Assembly (NCBI GenBank): GCA_030059675.1
Contig: JANVYQ010000004.1
Coordinates: forward strand, 121,086-185,085
DNA length: 64,000 bases
Direction of reading: 5' to 3'
From: Candidatus Pelearchaeum maunauluense
GTDB lineage: Archaea > Thermoproteota > Nitrososphaeria_A > Caldarchaeales > Caldarchaeaceae
A program made the translations under genes and the position numbers. Under the pieces are notes generated by a model. That model searched no databases and was not told the DNA's origin. It was given only the letters and a program-made list of their open reading frames with translations. Below, in pieces: positions 1,530-10,152 of the stretch; the stretch's first letter is position 1; each line of letters opens with the position of its first letter.

Positions 1530-1586
1530 GCAAGGGAGTTGTTGGTGTGAGAAATATTTAAGATAAATCGCCTATTGCTTGAGGTT

Positions 1587-2000
1587 ATGCTGGGACATAT
1601 CTCAAAGACTCAGGAGCCTGCTACTTGTGTTGTATGTAAGCGCGAAGGAAGGCCTGGGGAGCAGTTTCACTACATAACCGGCCTGGGCGCCGTCTGTATG
1701 CGCTGCGGCCTAGAGCTGGTTGATTGTAGCTCATGTGGTAAGAAGGTTAAGCGAATCACGATTACCGTTTTGAGGGGGAGAGCCTTGTGTCTAACATGCT
1801 ATAAGGCCGAGCGCGAGCGTGGCGAGAAGCGTATCCTAAAAGAGGTGGTGGCGGACAGCCTAGAGGCGTTAATGAAGAAAGTTGCGGAATCAACACCAGA
1901 GGGCTTTAGGTTCGTTGGCGTCAGGCTGAAGACAAGCTCAAAAACAACATGGCAAGCCGAGTATGAACGAGAAGATATCTTTGAAATGAGATGCAGCTAG
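1587..2000 (+). CDS. Hypothetical protein with four CxxC pairs (double Zn finger)
   Basis: CVVC-x19-CMRC-x6-CSSC-x17-CLTC; start at ATG 1587 or TTG 1575. Confidence 0.7.
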   Translation: MLGHISKTQEPATCVVCKREGRPGEQFHYITGLGAVCMRCGLELVDCSSCGKKVKRITITVLRGRALCLTCYKAERERGEKRILKEVVADSLEALMKKVAESTPEGFRFVGVRLKTSSKTTWQAEYEREDIFEMRCS

Positions 2001-2114
2001 AGTATATGGCCGTGATATCTACGCTGGTATTTCCATAAGATTATGAAGCTTATGCTTTGGTTTGAAAGATATTAAATCGGAATCAGCGCAGTAGCGGCGG
2101 CGGAGAATTAAGTC

Positions 2115-2915
2115 TTGAGCGGGGGCTGGAAAAATATCTGGACGCTGTTCAGCAGGCCTGGGGAGCGCATAGAGGTAGTAGAAACAGGCTACGACATGGT
2201 AGATGACCGCGAGGAGTTCAGACTTAGGATAGAGAAATCCCTATCCCAGCTCAGAGGGCAGATTGAGCGGCTCAACAACAAGTACAGAGAACTGGCCGCG
2301 AGGAACAAGCTATATTTCGAGAAATGTATCGAGGCACTGGTAGCTAGGGACGAGGAGAGGGCTAAGATATACGCCTCCGAGATAGCTGAGATTAAGAAGC
2401 TGGCCAAGATAATAATACATAGCCAGCTTGTCCTGCTCCAGATAAGGATTAGGCTGGAGAGCATCCTAGAGCTAGGGGAGGTTCTCGTCCTAGTAAGGCC
2501 GCTCATAACCCTGCTGGAGAATGTGCGCACAGAGATAGCTGATGTAGTCCCAGAAGCTTCGGAAAACCTCCGCTCACTCGCCAACACGATAGAGAACTTC
2601 ATAACCGAGTCCGAGACGTATGTCGAGCCACCGCCCAGCCAGGCTCTTGAAGAACTCTCAGACGAAGCTAACTTCATCCTAAACGAGGCCAGGAGGATAG
2701 CCGCTGAGAAGGTGAAAGAACACTTCCCAGATATACCAACGCTCACAGAGGAGGAGAAGGCAGTATATTCCTACGTGATGTCCAACCAAAATGAGGAGCT
2801 GGACCTGGACGAGTGCGCATCGCAGCTGGGGATAAGACCCGAAAACCTACAGGAGATATTGAGGAGATTGCAGGAGAAGGGACTGATAGAGATACAGATA
2901 GGGGAGGTTAGCTAG
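2115..2915 (+). CDS. cdvB: CdvB / ESCRT-III (Snf7-like) with C-terminal winged helix
   Basis: Snf7 core (LFEKC-like YFEKCIEAL, RAKIYASEIAEIKK, QIRIRLES); MIM2-like FPDIP; C-terminal wHTH (LDECASQLGI...LRRLQEKGLI). Confidence 0.9.
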   Translation: MSGGWKNIWTLFSRPGERIEVVETGYDMVDDREEFRLRIEKSLSQLRGQIERLNNKYRELAARNKLYFEKCIEALVARDEERAKIYASEIAEIKKLAKIIIHSQLVLLQIRIRLESILELGEVLVLVRPLITLLENVRTEIADVVPEASENLRSLANTIENFITESETYVEPPPSQALEELSDEANFILNEARRIAAEKVKEHFPDIPTLTEEEKAVYSYVMSNQNEELDLDECASQLGIRPENLQEILRRLQEKGLIEIQIGEVS

Positions 2916-4023
2916 TCCCATACTTCTCCTGCCATTTCAACAGCTTCTGCATATTCTCCAGAGCTATTGATGGTCGTCTCTTCTTCAGAACTTCCAGAAA
3001 ATCATCCATGGTTATTGGTCTTGGGTTTCCGTCGCCGCTTCCAGAGGAGAAGAGCTCATTAACCACACGAAGCTGTGCCTCCATGCATACGTCATGTATA
3101 TCTGCCGCAGAATAGCCATCAGACATAACAGCGAGCTGATGTAAATCAACGCCAACATCAAGCTTCAAGCCACTCGTATACATGGTGAACAACTGCTTAC
3201 GCGCCTCCAAGTCTGGTAAGGGAACGTAGATGCGCTTCTGGAATCTCCTGATGAATGGCTCGTCCAGATACCAGGGCTTATTCGTTGCTGCTATGACGTA
3301 GATATACTCCTTCTTGCCCTTGCTCAGTATTCCATCCATCTCCTTTACGAGCTGGTTTCTTACCCTAGCTTCTCCCCCAACTTCCAGGAACCTCTCCGCC
3401 GTGAGCGAGTCAACCTCGTCTATGAAGATTATCGCTGGCTTTCCCTTGCTGGCCACCTGCCTGGCCTGGCTGAAGAGGCGTGCCACGTTTCTCTCAGACT
3501 CTCCGAGCCACTTGGACATTATCGTAGCAGCGTCAACGACGAAGTAATGCGCGTCAATCTCCTTTGCTACGGCAGCCGCGAGGAGCGTCTTACCGCATCC
3601 AGGGGGGCCGAATACCAGAATCCCACGCGGCCAACCAAGCGGAAAGAGGTCTGGCCTCCTAACAGGAAACACTATGCTCTGCCTAATCGCCTTCTTAGCC
3701 TCCTCAATATTCACTATGTCGTCCCACGATACCTGCGGCTTATGACGTAGTATAGTGTCGTTGAATGTTACTTTCTGCTGCTGTGTTACTGCTAGCTTAT
3801 GCTGCTCAGCTACCCCCAGCTTCTCAATACGCGCCTCATACTGGCTTATCTTCTCGACGAAGACCTTACGCAGCGCCTGGTCTTGAGTTAGGTTATAGAG
3901 CTTCCACAGCAGGTCTATCGCTTCGCGGTATCTCTTTACAGCCTTAGCTGTCTGTCCTATCCTGTCATAATAAACAGCCTCACGGGCCTTGTATGCTGCT
4001 ATCCTCTCCAGCTCGGCGAACAT
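2908..4023 (-). CDS. cdvC: CdvC / Vps4 AAA+ ATPase with N-terminal MIT domain
   Basis: MIT helices (AREAVYYD...YREAIDLL); Walker A GPPGCGKT; pore loop SKWLGESE; Walker B IFIDEVD; RRFQKR; SD AGGAGGTG upstream. Confidence 0.92.
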   Translation of the reverse strand: MFAELERIAAYKAREAVYYDRIGQTAKAVKRYREAIDLLWKLYNLTQDQALRKVFVEKISQYEARIEKLGVAEQHKLAVTQQQKVTFNDTILRHKPQVSWDDIVNIEEAKKAIRQSIVFPVRRPDLFPLGWPRGILVFGPPGCGKTLLAAAVAKEIDAHYFVVDAATIMSKWLGESERNVARLFSQARQVASKGKPAIIFIDEVDSLTAERFLEVGGEARVRNQLVKEMDGILSKGKKEYIYVIAATNKPWYLDEPFIRRFQKRIYVPLPDLEARKQLFTMYTSGLKLDVGVDLHQLAVMSDGYSAADIHDVCMEAQLRVVNELFSSGSGDGNPRPITMDDFLEVLKKRRPSIALENMQKLLKWQEKYGTS

Positions 4024-4147
4024 CTTTCACCTCCTTCCGCGGCCTATTCTGCTATCAGGGCTACGCCGAGAACGTTATATAGACTAGCCTCGCCCAACCA
4101 GATAGCATTATCCAGGTATTTACTGTATAATCATGATGAATCCAACC

Positions 4148-4600
4148 TCATAATTCTTCTTTCACCGCCGAGAAGGAGACGCATGTTACTGTCTTGCCCA
4201 CACCCTCTATTGAACGGAGCTTATCTATCACCAGGGAACCTATTGATTGCATGGACTCGCCGCGCACTTTCAGCAGTATGTCCCACTCTCCAGATATTAG
4301 GTGAACCTCCACAACGTCATCCATGGCTGCTATCTCTTCTGCAAGTTTCTTCTGCGATATTCCTGAGCCAGGTACGAAGGAGACTAGGATGAAGGCGGTG
4401 GTCGGCTTTCCCATCTTGGCATAATCGAGTCTTACTGTGAATTTCTTGATTATTGACTGGCTTTTGAGCCGTTTTATACGCTCTTGCACGGTTGTTCGGG
4501 GCATCTTGAGCTTTGACGCCAGCGTGGTTATGCTCTGGCTAGAATCCTGCAATAGCTCCTGCAAGATTCGTTGGTCCTTCTCATCTAATTTTGCCTGCAT
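4148..4600 (-). CDS. Lrp/AsnC family transcriptional regulator
   Basis: LDEKDQRIL...TVQERIKRL HTH and RAM domain (ISGEWDILLKV); ATG 4600 preferred over 4645. Confidence 0.9.
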   Translation of the reverse strand: MQAKLDEKDQRILQELLQDSSQSITTLASKLKMPRTTVQERIKRLKSQSIIKKFTVRLDYAKMGKPTTAFILVSFVPGSGISQKKLAEEIAAMDDVVEVHLISGEWDILLKVRGESMQSIGSLVIDKLRSIEGVGKTVTCVSFSAVKEEL

Positions 4601-4722
4601 GCTCTCGGTGTTTCTGTTCCTGGAGGTCGTTAAACTTTCTTTCATTCGTCATTCGTCTATAACGTGGAAGGCAGATAACTAAATACTTTTAAAGAATCCA
4701 CCCCCACCACAAATGAGCAACT

Positions 4723-5769
4723 ATGCCGCAGATAAGGGACGCAGCTATTCACGGTTATGGTGGCTATGTGCCGCGTCTCCGCATAAAGGCTACGGAAATT
4801 GCACGTATCTGGGGTAAGGAGAGCGGCGAGGTTCCCATTAAGGAGAAGGCGGTTGCAGCGATTGACGAAGACGCTATAACTATGGCCATAGAGGCATCTC
4901 GCTACGCTATACGTAGGGCGGGGATAGACGCGGCTAGGATTGGCGCCGTGCATGTGGGGACTGAGTCTAAGCCCTATGCCGTGAAGCCCAGTGGGACGAT
5001 AGTAGCGGAGGCGCTGGGAATAGGCTCTAACATAACCTCGGCAGACTACGAGTTCGCCTGCAAGGCTGGCACAGAGGCGATGCAGAGCATAATAGCTATG
5101 GTCTCTGCTAGGCGTATAGAGTATGGCCTCGCCATAGGCTCCGACACGGCTCAGGGGAGGCCTGGGGATGCGCTGGAATACACCGCAGCAAGCGGCGCGG
5201 CCGCTCTGGTCATAGGGAGAGAAACAAGAGACGCCATAGCGAGGTTTGAATACTCGGTAACCTATGTAACTGATACGCCAGACTTCTGGCGTAGAAGCTA
5301 TGAACGATTCCCCATGCATACTTCACGCTTTACGGGAGAGCCAGCATACTTCAAGCATACGATAACCGCGGTTAAGAATCTCCTAGCGGAAAACGGCTAC
5401 AGCATTAATGATTTTGATTATTTCATCTTTCACCAGCCTAACGTCAAGTTTCCACTAACCGCTGCCAAGATTCTCTCCATACCATTAGCGAAGGTTGAGC
5501 CTGGGATAGTTTCCGATGTTGTTGGCAACACCTACGCTGCCTGCTCCATGCTGGGGCTTGTGAAGGTTCTGGACATAGCCAAGCCTGGGCAACGTATATT
5601 GATGACCTCATTCGGCTCAGGCGCGGGGAGCGATTCCTTCGTTATAACTGTCGGGGAGGGAATAGAGGAGAAGAGGGAGAGAGCTCCTCCATTAGCGGCG
5701 TTCTTCAGCAGGAAGAAGACGATAGACTACGGAATGTATCTGAAGATGCGGGATAAGATAAGGGTGTGA
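4723..5769 (+). CDS. hmgS: Hydroxymethylglutaryl-CoA synthase (archaeal type)
   Basis: GTESKPYAVKP, catalytic EFACKAG, FHQPN, GNTY and SFGSGAGSD motifs. Confidence 0.95.
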   Translation: MPQIRDAAIHGYGGYVPRLRIKATEIARIWGKESGEVPIKEKAVAAIDEDAITMAIEASRYAIRRAGIDAARIGAVHVGTESKPYAVKPSGTIVAEALGIGSNITSADYEFACKAGTEAMQSIIAMVSARRIEYGLAIGSDTAQGRPGDALEYTAASGAAALVIGRETRDAIARFEYSVTYVTDTPDFWRRSYERFPMHTSRFTGEPAYFKHTITAVKNLLAENGYSINDFDYFIFHQPNVKFPLTAAKILSIPLAKVEPGIVSDVVGNTYAACSMLGLVKVLDIAKPGQRILMTSFGSGAGSDSFVITVGEGIEEKRERAPPLAAFFSRKKTIDYGMYLKMRDKIRV

Positions 5770-5772
5770 GAG

Positions 5773-6927
5773 TTGAAGAAGGTTCTCATAGCAGGATATG
5801 GCCTTACGAAGGTGGAGGAGCACTGGGATAGGAGCTTGGAGAACTTGATGGCTGAGAGCAGTCTCAAAGCCCTGGAGTATGCTGGCCTCTCGCGTGTTGA
5901 TGCTGTTTATGTGGCTAATGTGTATGGTGAGGTTTTGCAGGAGCAGGCCGTTCTCGGCTCTGTCTTGGCCGAGGAGCTGGGTATGAGCGGTGTGCAGGCT
6001 TACAGGATAGAGGCGGGAGCTGCATCTGGGATAGCTGCTGTGAAGATGGCTGCTAACGCGATACAGTCTGGAGAAGCCAACGTAGTCCTTGTAACTGGTG
6101 TTGAGAAGCTCTCAGACGGTACGGCAGAGGAGCACTTAGCCCTCACCGCGATGGAGGAGCGCGAAGAATACACGGGCCAGATGGGTGTTCATCAAGCTGC
6201 TAGCGCCGCGCTACTATACAGGCTCTACCTAAGTCGGTATGGTGCTAGGCAGGATGGTATAGCCCAGTTCGCCGTCATAAGCCATGAGAACGCCGTTGGT
6301 GTGTCTCACGCGCAATACCCCTTCAAGGTGGGCTTGGATACGGTTATGAAATCACCCTACCTATCGGAGCCTCTTCACAGGCTTGAGGCAACGGCGGTAG
6401 CTGACGGCTCGGCAGCCATAATACTCTGCTCAGAAGACTTCGCAGCAAAGCTTGACCCGCCCAAGGCGAGGTTGGCCGCGTGTAGCCTAGCAACCGACTA
6501 CGTTACACCATTTGACAGGGAAGACCCCCTCCACTTCCAAGCCCTGGCGCGCGCTACTCACAGCGCCCTAGAGATGGCCGGCGTCTCAAGGGAGCAGATA
6601 GGCTTTCTGGAGCTTCACGACTCCTTCTCAATAGTTGCCGCCCTCTCGCTGGAGTCGTCTGGCTTCTTCCCGCGCGGGAAGGCTGGGGAGGCGGCTCTCG
6701 CAGGAAAGCTGAGCCTCAACGGGGAGCTACCCATAAACACCTTCGGCGGCCTCAAGGCGCGCGGCCACCCTGTAGGAGCTACGGCAATCTACCAGCTCGC
6801 TGAAGCTTATCTCCAGCTAACACACCAAGCTGGGAAGAACCAGCTAGACAACGCTAAACACGCCATGGTGCAGTCGCTGGCAGGCTTGGGATGTGCGGCG
6901 GCGGTATGCATTCTTGAGGAGGCGTGA
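5773..6927 (+). CDS. Thiolase-family protein (acetoacetyl-CoA thiolase-like) lacking catalytic cysteines
   Basis: Thiolase fold motifs GVEK, DGSAA, ELHDSF, GGLKARGHPVGAT; EAGAASG in place of EAACASG. Confidence 0.85.
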   Translation: MKKVLIAGYGLTKVEEHWDRSLENLMAESSLKALEYAGLSRVDAVYVANVYGEVLQEQAVLGSVLAEELGMSGVQAYRIEAGAASGIAAVKMAANAIQSGEANVVLVTGVEKLSDGTAEEHLALTAMEEREEYTGQMGVHQAASAALLYRLYLSRYGARQDGIAQFAVISHENAVGVSHAQYPFKVGLDTVMKSPYLSEPLHRLEATAVADGSAAIILCSEDFAAKLDPPKARLAACSLATDYVTPFDREDPLHFQALARATHSALEMAGVSREQIGFLELHDSFSIVAALSLESSGFFPRGKAGEAALAGKLSLNGELPINTFGGLKARGHPVGATAIYQLAEAYLQLTHQAGKNQLDNAKHAMVQSLAGLGCAAAVCILEEA

Positions 6928-6931
6928 TACC

Positions 6932-7348
6932 ATGTTGGAGTTTGGAATCAGGATACCTAGGTATTGGCGCGGCAAGCCTTTTAGATATCGACTTGAAGGA
7001 TTTAGATGCGAGGAATGCGGCGAGTTCCACTTCTCCCCAAGGCTCGTGTGTAGAAAATGCGGTGGAAAGCGACTGCGCCGCGACAAGCTCTCCGAACGCG
7101 GGAGGCTCATATGCTATACCGTCGTAAAGTCGGCTTCACCAAGCTTTGAGGCATACACGCCCTACATAGTGGGGCTAATCCAGACGGAAGACGGAACCAT
7201 GATAGTGGGACAGCTTACAGACTGCGACCCCGAAGAACTACATGAAGGGATGGATGTTGAGGCTACGATAAGAAGGCTGCAAACCGATGGCGAGAGCAGG
7301 CTAATCGCTTATGGTTATAAGTTTAGACCCGCTATACAGCGCCCTTAA
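6932..7348 (+). CDS. DUF35 Zn-ribbon/OB-fold scaffold protein of the thiolase-HMGS complex
   Basis: CEECG...CRKCG ribbon, PYIVGLI, YGYKFRP; follows the thiolase gene. Confidence 0.9.
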   Translation: MLEFGIRIPRYWRGKPFRYRLEGFRCEECGEFHFSPRLVCRKCGGKRLRRDKLSERGRLICYTVVKSASPSFEAYTPYIVGLIQTEDGTMIVGQLTDCDPEELHEGMDVEATIRRLQTDGESRLIAYGYKFRPAIQRP

Positions 7349-8168
7349 TCTTTTTCCACAGGAGTATTATGGCGTATTCGCGTGGTATGTTGTCGCGCTC
7401 CATTAGGCGCTGCACATCCGCGGTTAGCATGGCCTCTGCTCGCGTGCCGTGAGAGAGCACGTACCTCTTCTTCACCTCCTCCAAAATCCTGTCAGCCAAC
7501 TCCCTAGAAGTGGTTACGTCGTTAATCGTACGCGGCAGCTCTGATATCTCGTGAATCTTCTCCTCAAGCTCCTTAATCCTATTCCTAAGCATGCTAAGCT
7601 CCTGCCGAAGCTGGGGAATCCTAGCCTCCAACTCTTCTTTCAGACCAACATCGCCTTTACTAGAAGCAGTCTCATCTAGTTGGAGTGTGTTAAGTTCTAG
7701 GCTTGCCCAGTAGAGGTCTACCTCAACCTTGCTGAAGCGCTCTTCTAGCTGTGCCTTAGCCTGCTCTAGGATTTCTAGGGTTCTCCGCGAGTCATTAACT
7801 ATCTTGGAGCGTAGCTCGTTTAGCCTGGTTAGTATCTCTCTAATGGCGCGTGGGGGGACGGTCTCACGTATGCATAGTTCCTGGAACTTGAAGTCCCGTT
7901 TCCTTACATTCTCTATGTCTGACTTGAGCTTTTCATAGTGATTGATTGCGCTCTCCACCAAAGCCTCTTCTGGCTCTTCCTCCGACGCTACCTCAAGCTG
8001 CGGCTCAGCCTCTTGCTGCTGTTCTTCGCGAGTCTCTACAGCCTCGCTCACAGGCTCTATGACTGGCATATCCTCGCCAGTAGGGGGCTGGCTCTCCTGC
8101 TTCTTAGCCCCCTCTCCAGAGACTCTAACGATAATCTTACGCGGCATCCGCTCCTCACCGTTTGACAA
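7332..8168 (-). CDS. Coiled-coil protein, putative CdvA-like
   Basis: N-terminal KIIVRV, acidic/Gln linker, long heptad region with VRKRxxxFxELxxxExVP; start TTG 8168 or ATG 8147 (SD GGTGAGGAG). Confidence 0.6.
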   Translation of the reverse strand: MSNGEERMPRKIIVRVSGEGAKKQESQPPTGEDMPVIEPVSEAVETREEQQQEAEPQLEVASEEEPEEALVESAINHYEKLKSDIENVRKRDFKFQELCIRETVPPRAIREILTRLNELRSKIVNDSRRTLEILEQAKAQLEERFSKVEVDLYWASLELNTLQLDETASSKGDVGLKEELEARIPQLRQELSMLRNRIKELEEKIHEISELPRTINDVTTSRELADRILEEVKKRYVLSHGTRAEAMLTADVQRLMERDNIPREYAIILLWKKIKGAV

Positions 8169-8172
8169 GCTA

Positions 8173-8886
8173 TTACTCCTCCCGCATCTTCGGATACTTC
8201 AGCAGCTTTTTAGCTCTTTCAAAGAGGCTTGTACCAGATATACGGGGAGCTGATTCCAAGACATTCACGGTATTACCTTCATCACCAACCTCCTCAGGTC
8301 TAGCTGGCCTCTGGAGACCGAGCTTGGAGAGTATGCGCTTCTTCTCAGGGCTTGAATCCACATCAACCATGTGTCGTATGTTAAGCGTGTTGAGGCCATA
8401 TATTGTGCTCTCCAGAAGCTTACCGCGCTGAATCCCTATAGAAACCCTAACCGAAACCACCCTACCATCCTTGTTAATCCTGAACACCTTAAACTTGAGG
8501 CTTGATATTTTATGCGTCTTCCCATACTCCACAGGGTCTATAACCAGAGCAACAGCCTTGGGGAACATTAGCTGGTATCTCTTCTGCGTATCTATGTCTG
8601 TTGTTGAGAGAAACACGTCAAAGCCTGGGTGTGAGTGGTACCAGCCGACTATGTAAAGCCCTGAGTTTGTCTGGTGGAGCCACTCCGCCACCTCAGCCAT
8701 AACCGCCTCATCTAGATGGACGAAGACTGGAGTACCATGCTGCTCCCCTGTTACCGCGTCCCATATCTCAAGGACCTGGCTCTGCGCTCTCCCGACGAGG
8801 AGGCCTGCGACCTCCCTGTTAAGATTCGTGAGTGAGTGCTTAACTATCTTACCCAGAGCCAGCGGATATATGCGAGCTATCATCAC
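8173..8886 (-). CDS. JAB1/MPN/Mov34 (JAMM) metalloprotease, Rpn11-like
   Basis: Intact JAMM motif: EVAGLL...GWYHSHPGFDVFLSTTD; AVALVIDP. Confidence 0.92.
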   Translation of the reverse strand: MMIARIYPLALGKIVKHSLTNLNREVAGLLVGRAQSQVLEIWDAVTGEQHGTPVFVHLDEAVMAEVAEWLHQTNSGLYIVGWYHSHPGFDVFLSTTDIDTQKRYQLMFPKAVALVIDPVEYGKTHKISSLKFKVFRINKDGRVVSVRVSIGIQRGKLLESTIYGLNTLNIRHMVDVDSSPEKKRILSKLGLQRPARPEEVGDEGNTVNVLESAPRISGTSLFERAKKLLKYPKMREE

Positions 8887-8994
8887 CCCTAGCCTAACCC
8901 CTTGCCGCAGCGCTATGTATTAAAAGTTATGCTCATGTTATAAGCTCCTGAGATGACTAGAGCGTTCAGCCTGGTGATAATCCAGCAGTATCGC

Positions 8995-9918
8995 TCAGCC
9001 CATACCGCGTGTCTTAGCCTCATCAAGTATTCGCACAGCATCTACCGGGACGGATATGGGTAGCGGGAAAGCTGCTTCACTAAGCTCAAGCGTAATCTCG
9101 CGTTTAGGCTTATCTATACGTATAACCTTACCGACCATACCCCTCAACGGCCCAGAGACAATCTCAACAACCTGGCCAGTGGTTATGATGTCTATCAGCG
9201 GCTTCTCAACCAAGTGCGCGGCTATCTCGTCAAACGTGACCGTTATGAGCGGCCTATTCTTAATATGCCTAATGCCCTGCGAGACGGCTGCGACAGCCTC
9301 CTTATTCTTGGCCTCTATTAAGACATAGCCCCGAACAGTGGGTAGAATCAATATTGATGCAACATCTATCTTCTCCCTAATCCTAAACAGGAAGTCAAAG
9401 CTCTGCTCAATCCATCCATCATCTTTCCCACCTGTGAACGCCTTTCCTTCGGCGTATGTTTTGCTGGCGGTCTTATACCACAGATAGCTTCCAGACGCGC
9501 AGTCGGGGGCTGAGAGAACCAGGGCATAGGAGACGCCTCTCCTAACATCTATCATCGGCTCTATATTGACCTCATACCAGCCAGGCTCGGAAAGGAGGAG
9601 CGGGTCATACTTAACGCCCGATATCTTGTTTTCTAGGCTCACCCCATACTCTCCCACTCGGTAGAAATCCGCGTGGAGAGGTGCTGTAAGCTCACCCTCA
9701 CGCCCTAGATACAGGTAGAGCTTGGATATCGTCGTAGTCTTGGGTGCTGTGAATGTCTGGTAAGCCCTGCTCTCCGCGTTGATGCGCCAGGCCTCAAAAG
9801 GCTCGCCAGTCGTCTCAACGAGCACCTCAGTCAAACGCGCCTCAATAATACGCGCTACATTACGCTCCTGCCCAACCGTCGTCTTAACCGCGAAGTACCT
9901 ATACCCAGCAGAAGACAT
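8995..9918 (-). CDS. spt5: Transcription elongation factor Spt5 (NusG) with large internal insertion
   Basis: NGN (FAVKTTVGQERNVA...RGYVLIEA) and KOW (GQVVEIVSGPLRG) domains; 307 aa versus about 150 aa normally; next to secE. Confidence 0.9.
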   Translation of the reverse strand: MSSAGYRYFAVKTTVGQERNVARIIEARLTEVLVETTGEPFEAWRINAESRAYQTFTAPKTTTISKLYLYLGREGELTAPLHADFYRVGEYGVSLENKISGVKYDPLLLSEPGWYEVNIEPMIDVRRGVSYALVLSAPDCASGSYLWYKTASKTYAEGKAFTGGKDDGWIEQSFDFLFRIREKIDVASILILPTVRGYVLIEAKNKEAVAAVSQGIRHIKNRPLITVTFDEIAAHLVEKPLIDIITTGQVVEIVSGPLRGMVGKVIRIDKPKREITLELSEAAFPLPISVPVDAVRILDEAKTRGMG

Positions 9919-9981: not shown

Positions 9982-10152
9982 TTAAACGCCTCCCAGTGCT
10001 ATCGCCAGAAACCTAATGATGAATGCTATAAGCCCTACGATGGCTACTCCCAGTAGCGTGATGCGCATCGAGATGGAGAACTCTTCCCATGTCGGCTTCT
10101 TAGCCAGCTTCAGCAGCGTGGCTGCGGACTTCAGGAAGCTCTTCAGCCCCAA
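9982..10152 (-). CDS. secE: Protein translocase SecE/Sec61-gamma (56 aa, not in ORF track)
   Basis: Hand translation MGLKSFLKSAATLLKLAKKPTWEEFSISMRITLLGVAIVGLIAFIIRFLAIALGGV; KPTWEEF motif plus one TM; canonical position upstream of spt5. Confidence 0.9.
   Translation of the reverse strand: MGLKSFLKSAATLLKLAKKPTWEEFSISMRITLLGVAIVGLIAFIIRFLAIALGGV

Follow-up and report, generated by a model that had tools for sequence, protein, structure and literature searches.

Why should a gene for a JAMM protease and one for a helical protein lie close to cdvB and cdvC in the archaeon Candidatus Pelearchaeum maunauluense? A preliminary description of the window (the whole stretch of 64,000 nucleotides that was analysed) had seen there a possible route from deubiquitination to ESCRT membrane remodelling. 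That interpretation finds support in part. The reading that we favour as reasonably probable is a different one: the JAMM enzyme and its neighbour, named CC278 here, would form, within the Caldiarchaeum-type ubiquitin system, the deubiquitinase arm, with a JAMM that works at the membrane, and their closeness to the Cdv genes would be the remnant of an ancestral supercluster.

Genes and start sites at the locus

The ORF list and the Pfam and NCBIfam profile searches returned the gene layout as it was first described, with a zinc-finger gene, cdvB, a convergent cdvC and the JAMM gene with its helical neighbour all in place:

1575-2000, + strand: zinc-finger protein, 141 aa, double CxxC (four CxxC pairs and an alpha/beta C-terminal domain), upstream of cdvB
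2115-2915, + strand: CdvB, ESCRT-III core and C-terminal winged helix (NCBIfam, TrmB match)
2908-4023, - strand: CdvC/Vps4, MIT, AAA and Vps4_C domains (Pfam; NCBIfam CdvC 491.6 bits)
4148-4645, - strand: Lrp/AsnC (Pfam)
4723-5769, + strand: HMG-CoA synthase, HMGS (Pfam)
5773-6927, + strand: thiolase (Pfam)
6893-7348, + strand: DUF35/ChsH2-type protein (Pfam)
7332-8168, - strand: CC278, helical, 278-aa ORF, downstream of the JAMM gene
8173-8886, - strand: JAMM (MPN+), Rpn11-type, 237 aa (Pfam JAB 69.9 bits)
8194-8229, - strand: predicted basic amphipathic C-terminal helix of the JAMM protein, S220-Y231, SLFERAKKLLKY, formerly described as a MIM1 motif
8918-8925, - strand: candidate TATA-box-like element TTTTAATA, read from the sequence 32-39 nt upstream of the JAMM ATG
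8995-9918, - strand: Spt5 (Pfam/NCBIfam)
9982-10152, - strand: SecE (Pfam/NCBIfam)

The cdvB and cdvC ORFs overlap by 8 nt at their convergent ends, and the four unrelated genes said to separate them from the JAMM pair are indeed there (Lrp/AsnC, HMG-CoA synthase, thiolase and DUF35/ChsH2). The 4-nt gap described between JAMM and CC278 holds if CC278 starts at the TTG at 8168, but widens to 25 nt with the ATG at 8147. The latter is probably the true start: it is preceded by GGTGAGGAG, matches the orthologue start MP[KR][KR] and would give a protein of 271 aa. For JAMM, the ATG at 8883 is the more likely start.

CdvB matches the NCBIfam models CdvB1/B2 (E 2e-37) and CdvB (E 8e-32), in both cases under the equivalog cut-off, and its C-terminal winged helix is of the TrmB type (28.7 bits). 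The same winged-helix segment recurs in 73 of 76 genomes, while a recognisable CdvA was found in none of the 15 Caldarchaeales sampled, nor by a profile search of the present genome (see also PMC3082918 and PMC6053391). Since Caldarchaeales keep the winged helix without a recognisable CdvA, it has no known ligand. The zinc-finger gene adjoins cdvB in genera g1, g2 and g3 only. Its product has seven homologue clusters and an AF2 model with a pLDDT of 83.6, for which the best Foldseek matches, of the LIM/FYVE type, are not significant (E 0.03-0.3).

The JAMM enzyme and its ubiquitin system

The JAMM protein is a close orthologue of the already characterised Rpn11-like deubiquitinase of Caldiarchaeum. 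Residues 2-187 match the N11-like protein of PDB 6FJU with an E value of 5.1e-78. The likeness to Rpn11, CSN5 and AMSH motifs noticed earlier was borne out in that order, with E values of about 2e-21 for yeast and human Rpn11, 1.5e-14 for CSN5 and 3e-9 for AMSH. The enzyme had been called intact, and all of its catalytic residues (E25, H84, H86, S94 and D97) are present and invariant among 31 aligned orthologues. An assignment to the SAMP-specific JAMM1 type was rejected: the desampylase model gives only 27.8 bits where its cut-off is 130, and the Pfam JAB score exceeds that of Prok-JAB (42.1 bits). A second JAMM gene in the genome, adjoining a cysteine synthase gene, scores higher with Prok-JAB (86 bits) than with Pfam JAB. 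Profile searches of the contigs returned no other Rpn11-like gene; the genome's ubiquitin operon holds no separate Rpn11, and the JAMM gene at this locus is the only one of its kind.

Matches to ubiquitin, E1 and E2 profiles fall on contigs C12, C2, C17 and C20, in agreement with the earlier statement that the window carries none of these genes. The eukaryote-type system that had been expected is encoded on contig C12 as a Ub-E2-E1-RING operon divergent from L11, and its ubiquitin carries seven more residues after the GG. The second RING E3 of the cluster (RING2; C16:269-958) has a C-terminal RING domain, and from its position we infer that contigs C12 and C16 abut.

In most relatives, JAMM and CC278 are divergent from Ub-E2-E1-RING, and Ub directly adjoins JAMM at 37 of 40 related loci, the three exceptions being a locus of the same genus, G021 and a 3-kb contig too short to judge. 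Passages in Nunoura et al. (2011; PMC3082918) likewise place RPN11l next to the ubiquitin operon on the reverse strand. Here, JAMM adjoins Spt5-SecE instead, and the reciprocal junction, L11 beside Ub, lies on contig C12. A rearrangement within the genus thus appears to have split JAMM from Ub-E2-E1-RING, with Spt5-SecE marking the junction; it would have brought Spt5-SecE beside JAMM and L11-L1-L10 beside Ub.

The closest known system is that of CsRpn11 (CSUB_C1473; PDB 6FJU/6FJV) from Candidatus Caldiarchaeum subterraneum (Fuchs et al. 2018; Nunoura et al. 2011; Hennell James et al. 2017). The two have in common the JAMM sequence and catalytic residues, a ubiquitin with a C-terminal extension, E2, E1, a small RING, a second RING in the genome and a CC278-family gene downstream of JAMM. 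They differ in the neighbour of JAMM (Spt5-SecE here, the ubiquitin operon there) and in the linker before the C-terminal helix, which is ~35 residues longer here (237 versus 202 aa). In vitro, the C. subterraneum orthologue both trims pro-ubiquitin and removes ubiquitin from conjugates. Passages of Fuchs et al. (2018; PMC6043591) report that CsRpn11 cuts pro-ubiquitin after GG, that its residues 174-202, H5 among them, are unresolved in the structure, and that the C-terminal helices are dispensable for catalysis. The words "membrane" and "coiled" do not occur in the text of that paper and occur only in unrelated contexts in PMC5654768; the passages of both that deal with this system do not discuss the tail helix, a CC278 partner or a membrane character of the second RING.

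Gene order across the Caldarchaeales

Synteny was compared across four families (f1 to f4) and 15 genera. The order CC278-DUF35-thiolase-HMGS-Lrp-CdvC-CdvB is kept in families f1 and f4, and its DUF35-to-CdvB part in f2; the linkage to the Cdv genes is therefore not unique to this genome, as the preliminary description had allowed that it might be. CC278 and CdvC are on one contig in 28 genomes, and 16 of these, from 5 of 15 genera and 2 of 4 families, have them less than 5 kb apart; the distance is 3.3 kb in five genera and 9.4 kb in one genus of a third family. Among 22 genomes with JAMM and CdvC on one contig, 10 have the two less than 20 kb apart. In the others, the two are mostly 28-184 kb apart, and once 419 kb, which is what would be expected from the decay of an old linkage. 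The position of JAMM and CC278 near cdvB and cdvC thus appears to be an old, order-wide arrangement, and the Cdv linkage looks like a decaying ancestral supercluster.

This supercluster would have read ZnF-CdvB-CdvC-Lrp-HMGS-thiolase-DUF35-CC278-JAMM, followed divergently by Ub-E2-E1-RING-CC107-CC240-RING2, and different lineages would have broken it at different points. The full order is observed in genome G014. The outer flanks of the CC278-to-CdvB block (ZnF, MobA, Spt5 and SecE) are not kept across families; that the seven-gene block has outlasted them could reflect selection rather than inertia. Genus g13, where CdvC lies 1.6 kb from E1-RING after a different break, also counts against our reading.

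The JAMM tail, CC278 and the Cdv proteins

The JAMM protein ends in SLFERAKKLLKYPKMREE, identical to the tail first quoted. Phe is abundant in the JAMM tails, which are strongly basic, and all 41 orthologues carry a net positive charge over their last 25 residues. The hydrophobic moment of the C-terminal helix is 0.68, compared with 0.54 for the 95th percentile of core 11-mers; the best 11-mer reaches at least 0.54 in 29 of the 41 tails, a comparison inflated by taking the best of 20 windows per tail. What is conserved is a basic amphipathic C-terminal helix, and its composition makes membrane targeting its probable role. In family f3, all four JAMM proteins have a TM helix at the C-terminal end (Kyte-Doolittle 19-mer above 3.0), which points to the membrane and not to the MIT domain of CdvC. 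Since a basic amphipathic stretch is retained ahead of it, this helix has been added to that stretch and does not simply take its place. A membrane tether also fits better because RING2 has four membrane helices, and three to five hydrophobic segments are found in RING2 from 25 of 41 sources, the present genome included. Membrane-targeting amphipathic helices at the C-terminus are known from proteins of the MinD/FtsA type, whose general layout the JAMM protein shares, in that its extreme C-terminus is a short helix, basic and amphipathic, that follows a flexible linker; the JAMM helix, a putative membrane binder, could equally be a protein-docking element.

Docking is the essence of the earlier proposal, in which the tail, as a MIM1-type helix, would bind the CdvC (Vps4) MIT domain and thereby recruit deubiquitination to ESCRT. 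CdvC is indeed the only MIT-domain protein above cut-off in the genome, JAMM and CdvC are close in the 10 of 22 genomes counted above, and tails in genera g1, g3 and g4 carry LFERAKK[LI]L, which has the LxxR-x-x-x-L pattern. Comparison across families shows rough conservation at phi(0), basic(3), small or hydrophobic(4) and phi(7/8), but these positions are common to any amphipathic helix. The MIM1 reading itself found no support in the comparison, the strict consensus being found in none of 41 orthologue tails and a loose pattern in six; the Arg is replaced by Gly or Lys in g2 and by Ser or Lys in g14. The proposal would also reverse the arrangement in known ESCRT-linked JAMM enzymes such as AMSH, which binds the MIMs of ESCRT-III through an N-terminal MIT domain of its own. 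As in the AMSH/STAMBP system, ESCRT-III and Vps4 occur in one organism with a JAMM deubiquitinase, to which AMSH is a detectable relative, but the present JAMM has no MIT domain (Pfam), and its nearest eukaryotic relatives are Rpn11 and CSN5. With the basic, Phe-rich tails and the TM helix of f3 also against it, docking on CdvC is very improbable.

The other two alternatives concern CC278, which is found in 71 of 76 genomes and for which a search of 1.84 billion proteins gave only 14 representatives at E<=1e-30. Profile searches found no Pfam family or recognisable domain in it, and its AF2 model (pTM 0.66) consists of a disordered stretch (residues 1-62) and a confident bundle (64-277). It might be unrelated to both JAMM and Cdv, the three units being merely physically close, and the spacing of about 10-17 kb between CC278 and JAMM in g11, g12 and g15, with separate contigs in g13, would agree with this. 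Such an accident is nevertheless improbable, given that 46 of the 55 genomes with both genes on one contig, from 11 of 15 genera and all four families, have CC278 less than 1.5 kb from JAMM, on the same strand and with short gaps, and that the CC278 family is confined to the lineage with the Caldiarchaeum-type ubiquitin system. CC278 is a lineage-restricted family and a conserved neighbour of JAMM. It could also be a CdvA-type adaptor lacking the PRC barrel, whose N-terminal strand would pair with the winged helix of CdvB in the manner of CdvA's E3B peptide and whose bundle would hold JAMM, tying ubiquitin to ESCRT-III. The CdvA of Sulfolobales and Nitrososphaeria consists of a PRC barrel, a three-helix coiled coil, a linker and a C-terminal E3B peptide (PDB 9s9g, PMC12818579). 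Two structure searches list this coiled coil among the nearest folds of CC278. VIA-align pairs model residues 72-212 with the S. islandicus CdvA filament 9s9g_A over 130 residues (Z 10.1, rmsd 3.3), but the tool warns that values below about 13 are unspecific for helical bundles, and many unrelated helical hairpins reach the same Z. In the ESM Atlas, the first structural neighbour is a CdvA (PF18822) cluster (TM 0.57/0.53, 156 residues), the other rows being generic coiled coils (TM 0.48-0.62). Similarly, hhalign sets CC278 73-192 and CdvA 81-195 in the same register, but with probabilities of 19% and 26%; hmmsearch scores do not exceed 10.6 bits in either direction, and a profile search with PF18822 and NF041007 gives no match. 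An acidic flexible linker and a conserved terminal strand, MP[KR][KR][IV][IV][IVL][KR], mirror the linker and E3B of CdvA, and on an E3B matrix the N-terminus of CC278 comes 23rd among 2767 ORF N-termini. However, at most 2% of shuffles reach the score in only 2 of 34 CC278 members, both from the studied genus, the strand is N-terminal where the E3B of CdvA is C-terminal, and the two elements that define CdvA, the PRC barrel and the C-terminal E3B peptide, are missing. The absence of CdvA beside a retained winged helix and the nearness of CC278 to cdvB and cdvC in several genera favour the adaptor; unlike CdvA, CC278 is encoded with a deubiquitinase. On balance we regard the adaptor role as unlikely.

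In the membrane-working deubiquitinase arm that we favour, the JAMM enzyme would, by orthology, trim the C-terminal extension of pro-ubiquitin and remove ubiquitin from conjugates. It would act at the membrane through its flexible linker and basic amphipathic helix, as the TM helix of f3 and the four-TM RING E3 of the cluster suggest, with CC278 as a conserved partner or adaptor. A functional coupling of ubiquitin to ESCRT in these archaea is possible.

The JAMM gene and its surroundings

ORF listing and Pfam/NCBIfam family scans of the window bear out the gene layout of the preliminary description, in which a JAMM enzyme and a coiled-coil protein (hereafter CC278) lie near cdvB and cdvC:

1575-2000 (+), zinc-finger protein of 141 aa with four CxxC pairs
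2115-2915 (+), CdvB, an ESCRT-III core with a C-terminal TrmB-type winged helix
2908-4023 (-), CdvC/Vps4, with MIT, AAA and Vps4_C domains
between CdvC and the following trio, an Lrp/AsnC regulator
between Lrp/AsnC and CC278, the archaeal trio HMG-CoA synthase, thiolase and DUF35
7332-8168 (-), CC278, a helical protein of 278 aa without assigned family
8173-8886 (-), JAMM, 237 aa, Pfam JAB
right of JAMM (-), Spt5 and SecE, on the strand shared with JAMM

The spacing of JAMM and CC278 has to be corrected: they are separated by 25 nt rather than by 4 nt with the probable ATG start of CC278 at 8147, which is preceded by GGTGAGGAG and agrees with the MP[KR][KR] start of all orthologues. CdvB is matched by the NCBIfam models CdvB1/B2 (128.7 bits) and CdvB (110.9 bits), an assignment at the family level only since both scores are below the equivalog cut-offs, and by a TrmB-type winged helix (28.7 bits). 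CdvC scores 35.6 bits for MIT, 124.6 for AAA and 32 for Vps4_C in Pfam, and 491.6 bits in NCBIfam against an equivalog cut-off of 650. The zinc-finger protein is limited to the family of the window genome (f1), where it adjoins cdvB wherever seen (genera g1, g2 and g3) and carries an invariant C-terminus, …AEYEREDI..RCS. Its one Pfam match, DUF7685, reaches 17 bits and is below cut-off; its structure is predicted with confidence, and the weak, LIM/FYVE-like Foldseek rows (E 0.03-0.3) allowed no known fold to be assigned. On the other flank, Spt5 (8995-9918, -, 307 aa) has an insertion of about 150 residues that divides its NGN domain, so that Pfam NGN matches in two stretches and TIGR00405 covers residues 182-301 only. 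This insertion is kept in all 13 genomes of the family that were searched (matches span residues 1 to about 300) and is missing from the three remaining families (28 genomes), where the matches comprise residues 182-305 plus 2-34.

By search scores, the JAMM is nearer the Rpn11/CSN5 clade than the prokaryotic JAB or desampylase enzymes. Among solved structures the best matches are the 'N11-like protein' entries 6FJU and 6FJV (E 5e-78 and 9e-68), followed by yeast and human Rpn11 (about 2e-21), CSN5 (1.5e-14), AMSH (3e-9) and BRCC36; the ranking is headed by CsRpn11. The Pfam JAB model (69.9 bits) outscores Prok-JAB (42.1 bits), and the haloarchaeal desampylase model gives 27.8 bits against a cut-off of 130, which argues against a SAMP-type enzyme. 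The E...HxH...S..D motif is present, and the residues E25, H84, H86, S94 and D97 show no variation among 31 orthologues.

The genome does encode a ubiquitin system. Contig C12 carries a eukaryote-type set made up of ubiquitin, E2, E1, a small RING protein and two coiled-coil genes, and its ubiquitin ends in GG plus seven extra residues. The preliminary description had asked whether there is a separate Rpn11 in such an operon: the C12 operon is without a JAMM, and the JAMM of the window in turn is without an adjoining Ub-E2-E1-RING set. Just one other JAB gene was found in the genome, of 141 aa and beside cysteine synthase (L013:4555-4980, that is C16:15555-15980, -), and it is of prokaryotic type, Prok-JAB scoring 86 bits against 43 for JAB. 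Thus, the window JAMM is taken to be the Rpn11 of the C12 ubiquitin system. The position of the 141-aa gene directly downstream of a cysteine-synthase-like gene is the layout expected for a sulfur-carrier or SAMP-type system. According to excerpts of two studies (PMC6043591, PMC5654768), the C. subterraneum orthologue of the window enzyme processes pro-ubiquitin and deconjugates ubiquitin in vitro, and cleavage of pro-ubiquitin and ubiquitin conjugates can be predicted for the window enzyme by orthology. The JAMM adds a member to a known enzyme family that has already been characterised, and its locus has been rearranged.

Gene order across Caldarchaeales

The comparison set consisted of 76 genomes from 15 genera and 4 families, all of the same order, and gene order was read from 20-kb stretches around JAMM in 40 genomes. 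Matches to JAMM were found in 73 of the 76 genomes, to CdvC in 72, to CC278 in 71 and to the CdvB winged helix in 73; because all four are near-universal in the order, their phyletic patterns are uninformative. Gene order is more telling. A divergent Ub-E2-E1-RING set adjoins JAMM in 37 of the 40 loci, the exceptions being a genome of the same genus, a 3-kb contig that is not assessable, and G021. This makes the separation of JAMM from ubiquitin in the window genus a secondary event. In 29 of the 40 loci CC278 is the next gene after JAMM and reads in the same direction, and it lies at most 1.5 kb from JAMM in 46 of the 55 genomes in which they share a contig (11 of the 15 genera). Among genomes with both genes on one contig, the distance to CdvC is below 5 kb for CC278 in 16 of 28 and below 20 kb for JAMM in 10 of 22. 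One genome, G014, retains the full order: ZnF-CdvB-CdvC-Lrp-HMGS-thiolase-DUF35-CC278-JAMM, then, divergently, Ub-E2-E1-RING-CC107-CC240-RING2. With these counts and the G014 arrangement, the linkage of JAMM and CC278 to the cdv genes is not confined to the window genome. The three genes at the far end of the ubiquitin arm are as follows:

L012:6368-6691 (+), CC107, a coiled-coil protein without family
L012:6705-7427 (-), CC240, a coiled-coil protein without family
C16:269-958 in the window genome and L051:13780-14532, RING2, a second RING E3 with about four hydrophobic helices and a zf-RING_2 domain (38 bits)

CC107 and CC240 follow the small RING gene in most loci of f1, f3 and f4; together with CC278, three helical proteins accompany the ubiquitin genes. 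From the location of RING2 it seems that contig C12 borders on the start of C16; the ubiquitin operon would then be about 129 kb from JAMM.

The block has come apart at different points in different lineages. In the window genus the break falls between JAMM and ubiquitin and has left reciprocal junctions, JAMM next to Spt5 in the window and L11 next to ubiquitin on C12; SecE-Spt5-L11-L1-L10 is the canonical archaeal gene order. In genus g2 the break lies between Lrp and CdvC, which is found 68-154 kb off. In g11, g12 and g15 the stretch CC278-DUF35-thiolase-HMGS-Lrp-CdvC-CdvB is intact and the JAMM-ubiquitin arm is 10-17 kb distant; in g13, CdvC lies 1.6 kb from E1-RING. A g13 genome, G049, has a split ubiquitin cluster (L097:9824-13732), with JAMM-Ub-E2 on one contig and E1-RING-CC240-RING2 near an isolated CdvC, a HypD-like ORF lying in between. 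The gene order makes a decaying ancestral supercluster the best reading of the cdv-ubiquitin linkage. Genes flanking the block (the zinc-finger gene, MobA and Spt5) vary between families, so that selection on the block itself may play a part.

CC278 and its relation to CdvA

The preliminary description had called CC278 CdvA-like. No Pfam or NCBIfam family matches it (34 members were searched with Pfam), and the family is narrow, with 19 clusters in a 90% database and, in a profile search of 1.84 billion proteins, 14 representatives at E<=1e-30. The other 8 of the 22 profile matches were set aside as short stretches, coiled-coil parts of long proteins or a 40-aa fragment. In an AF2 model built from 34 sequences, residues 1-62 are disordered and residues 64-277 form a confident helical bundle (pTM 0.66). 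Three elements are conserved: a strand-like N-terminus, MP[KR][KR][IV][IV][IVL][KR]; an acidic linker, often with IEPV; and a C-terminal helix, IPREYAxILLWK. In g1, g4 and the majority of f4 members the linker (residues ~20-43; window 8040-8110, -) holds a short conserved motif, [IV]-[IE]-P-[VE] (PVIEPV, for instance), possibly a second element for docking.

Two structural comparisons hint weakly at CdvA. The first row of an ESM Atlas structure search is a CdvA (PF18822) cluster, at TM 0.57/0.53, generic coiled coils having similar TM values. VIA-align superposes CC278 on the S. islandicus CdvA filament (9s9g_A) over 130 residues with Z 10.1 and rmsd 3.3, in the generic range of helical bundles; many helical hairpins, among them PspA, Vta1 and CHMP4B, are tied at Z ~10. 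Profile-profile comparison by hhalign with CdvA alignments of 17 and 29 sequences gave probabilities of 19% and 26%, the second run aligning CC278 73-192 with CdvA 81-195 in the register of the structural alignments. Foldseek against the PDB returned nothing at E<=0.001, and hmmsearch between CC278 and CdvA stayed at or below 10.6 bits whichever of the two served as query. Pfam found neither PRC nor CdvA in the 34 members, and the disordered N-terminal region of the model holds no PRC barrel. Nor does CC278 end in the C-terminal E3B peptide of CdvA, its C-terminus being the conserved helix. E3B peptides, of the form P-phi-x-phi-basic-phi, do bear a loose likeness to the N-terminal strand of CC278: an E3B matrix places its best match within residues 1-50 for 25 of 34 members, exceeds shuffled sequences in only two, both of the window genus, and ranks the CC278 N-terminus 23rd of the 2767 ORF N-termini of the genome. 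CdvA itself is not recognisable in the window genome, where the best match to NF041007 scores 15.8 bits and is not at the CC278 locus, and its model matches none of 15 Caldarchaeales sampled, against 76 of 121 genomes of a phylum sample; this absence is consistent with the excerpts of Nunoura 2011 (PMC3082918) and Hua 2018 (PMC6053391). 'CdvA-like' is therefore a reasonable lead and not a finding.

Predicted membrane features and the proposed ubiquitin-ESCRT coupling

The extreme C-terminus of the JAMM, after a flexible linker, is a basic amphipathic helix. The last 25 residues of the protein carry a net positive charge in all 41 orthologues, and the best 11-mer of the tail has a hydrophobic moment of at least 0.54, the 95th percentile among 11-mers of the catalytic cores, in 29 of them. 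In all four f3 proteins the C-terminal end is formed by a transmembrane helix (Kyte-Doolittle 19-mer >3.0), with a basic amphipathic stretch ahead of it. These f3 orthologues (L059-L062) are 260-266 aa long and, with their strongly hydrophobic final 19-mer, tail-anchored in appearance. Excerpts of Fuchs et al. (PMC6043591) describe residues 174-202, including H5, as unresolved in the crystal and the C-terminal helices as dispensable for catalysis. Taken with the properties of the tail, this suggests that it is probably a membrane tether.

The tail had previously been likened to a MIM1 motif, whose consensus is (D/E)xxLxxRLxxL(K/R). None of the 41 orthologue tails fits this consensus; a loose pattern, L..R[LIVMA]..[LIVM][LIVMKR], occurs in six, and the LxxR...L pattern originally noticed is limited to g1, g3 and g4, besides two chance matches. 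Docking of the MIM1 type is unlikely. A membrane location also emerges for RING2, which in 25 of 41 sources examined has a RING domain at the C-terminus after 3-5 hydrophobic segments; 11 were without a match in the stretch examined and 5 were not scorable, owing to ORF bounds or to the small RING being matched instead. RING2 is kept in f1, f3 and f4, with no copy within the stretches examined at the eight f2 loci, and this second E3 is by its hydrophobic segments a predicted membrane protein.

The preliminary description had gone on to suggest a coupling of deubiquitination to ESCRT. Judged on points that it had itself proposed (linkage beyond one genome, the type of the JAMM, the presence of ubiquitin), this coupling is neither refuted nor positively supported. 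One could imagine a membrane-centred link in Caldarchaeales that runs through the RING E3, JAMM, CC278 and CdvB. The four-TM RING E3 would mark membrane proteins and the membrane-tethered, Rpn11-like JAMM would take the mark off; CC278, as a diverged, PRC-less relative or an analogue of CdvA, would hold the deubiquitinase and dock its N-terminal strand on the otherwise ligand-less CdvB winged helix, and the coupling would have left its genomic trace in the ancestral Cdv-mevalonate-ubiquitin supercluster. As a whole we consider this scheme improbable. In the absence of coupling, the locus would be unremarkable, a known system whose genes have been rearranged.

To our knowledge, the Caldiarchaeum-type ubiquitin enzymes have been reconstituted in vitro only, on artificial substrates. 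To this system the present analysis adds several order-wide features: a conserved gene for a helical partner of the Rpn11-like JAMM, a tether that probably holds this enzyme at the membrane, a predicted membrane-embedded RING E3 and an apparent ancestral arrangement placing all of these beside cdvB/cdvC. Compared with the excerpts of PMC6043591, PMC5654768, PMC3082918 and PMC6053391, the CC278 partner, the probable tether, the membrane RING E3 and the supercluster are new, as leads. Caldarchaeales are not Asgard archaea. If the coupling is true, the connection between ubiquitin and ESCRT would reach beyond the Asgard archaea, and the winged helix of CdvB, whose ligand is missing in archaea devoid of CdvA, would have a candidate partner in CC278.
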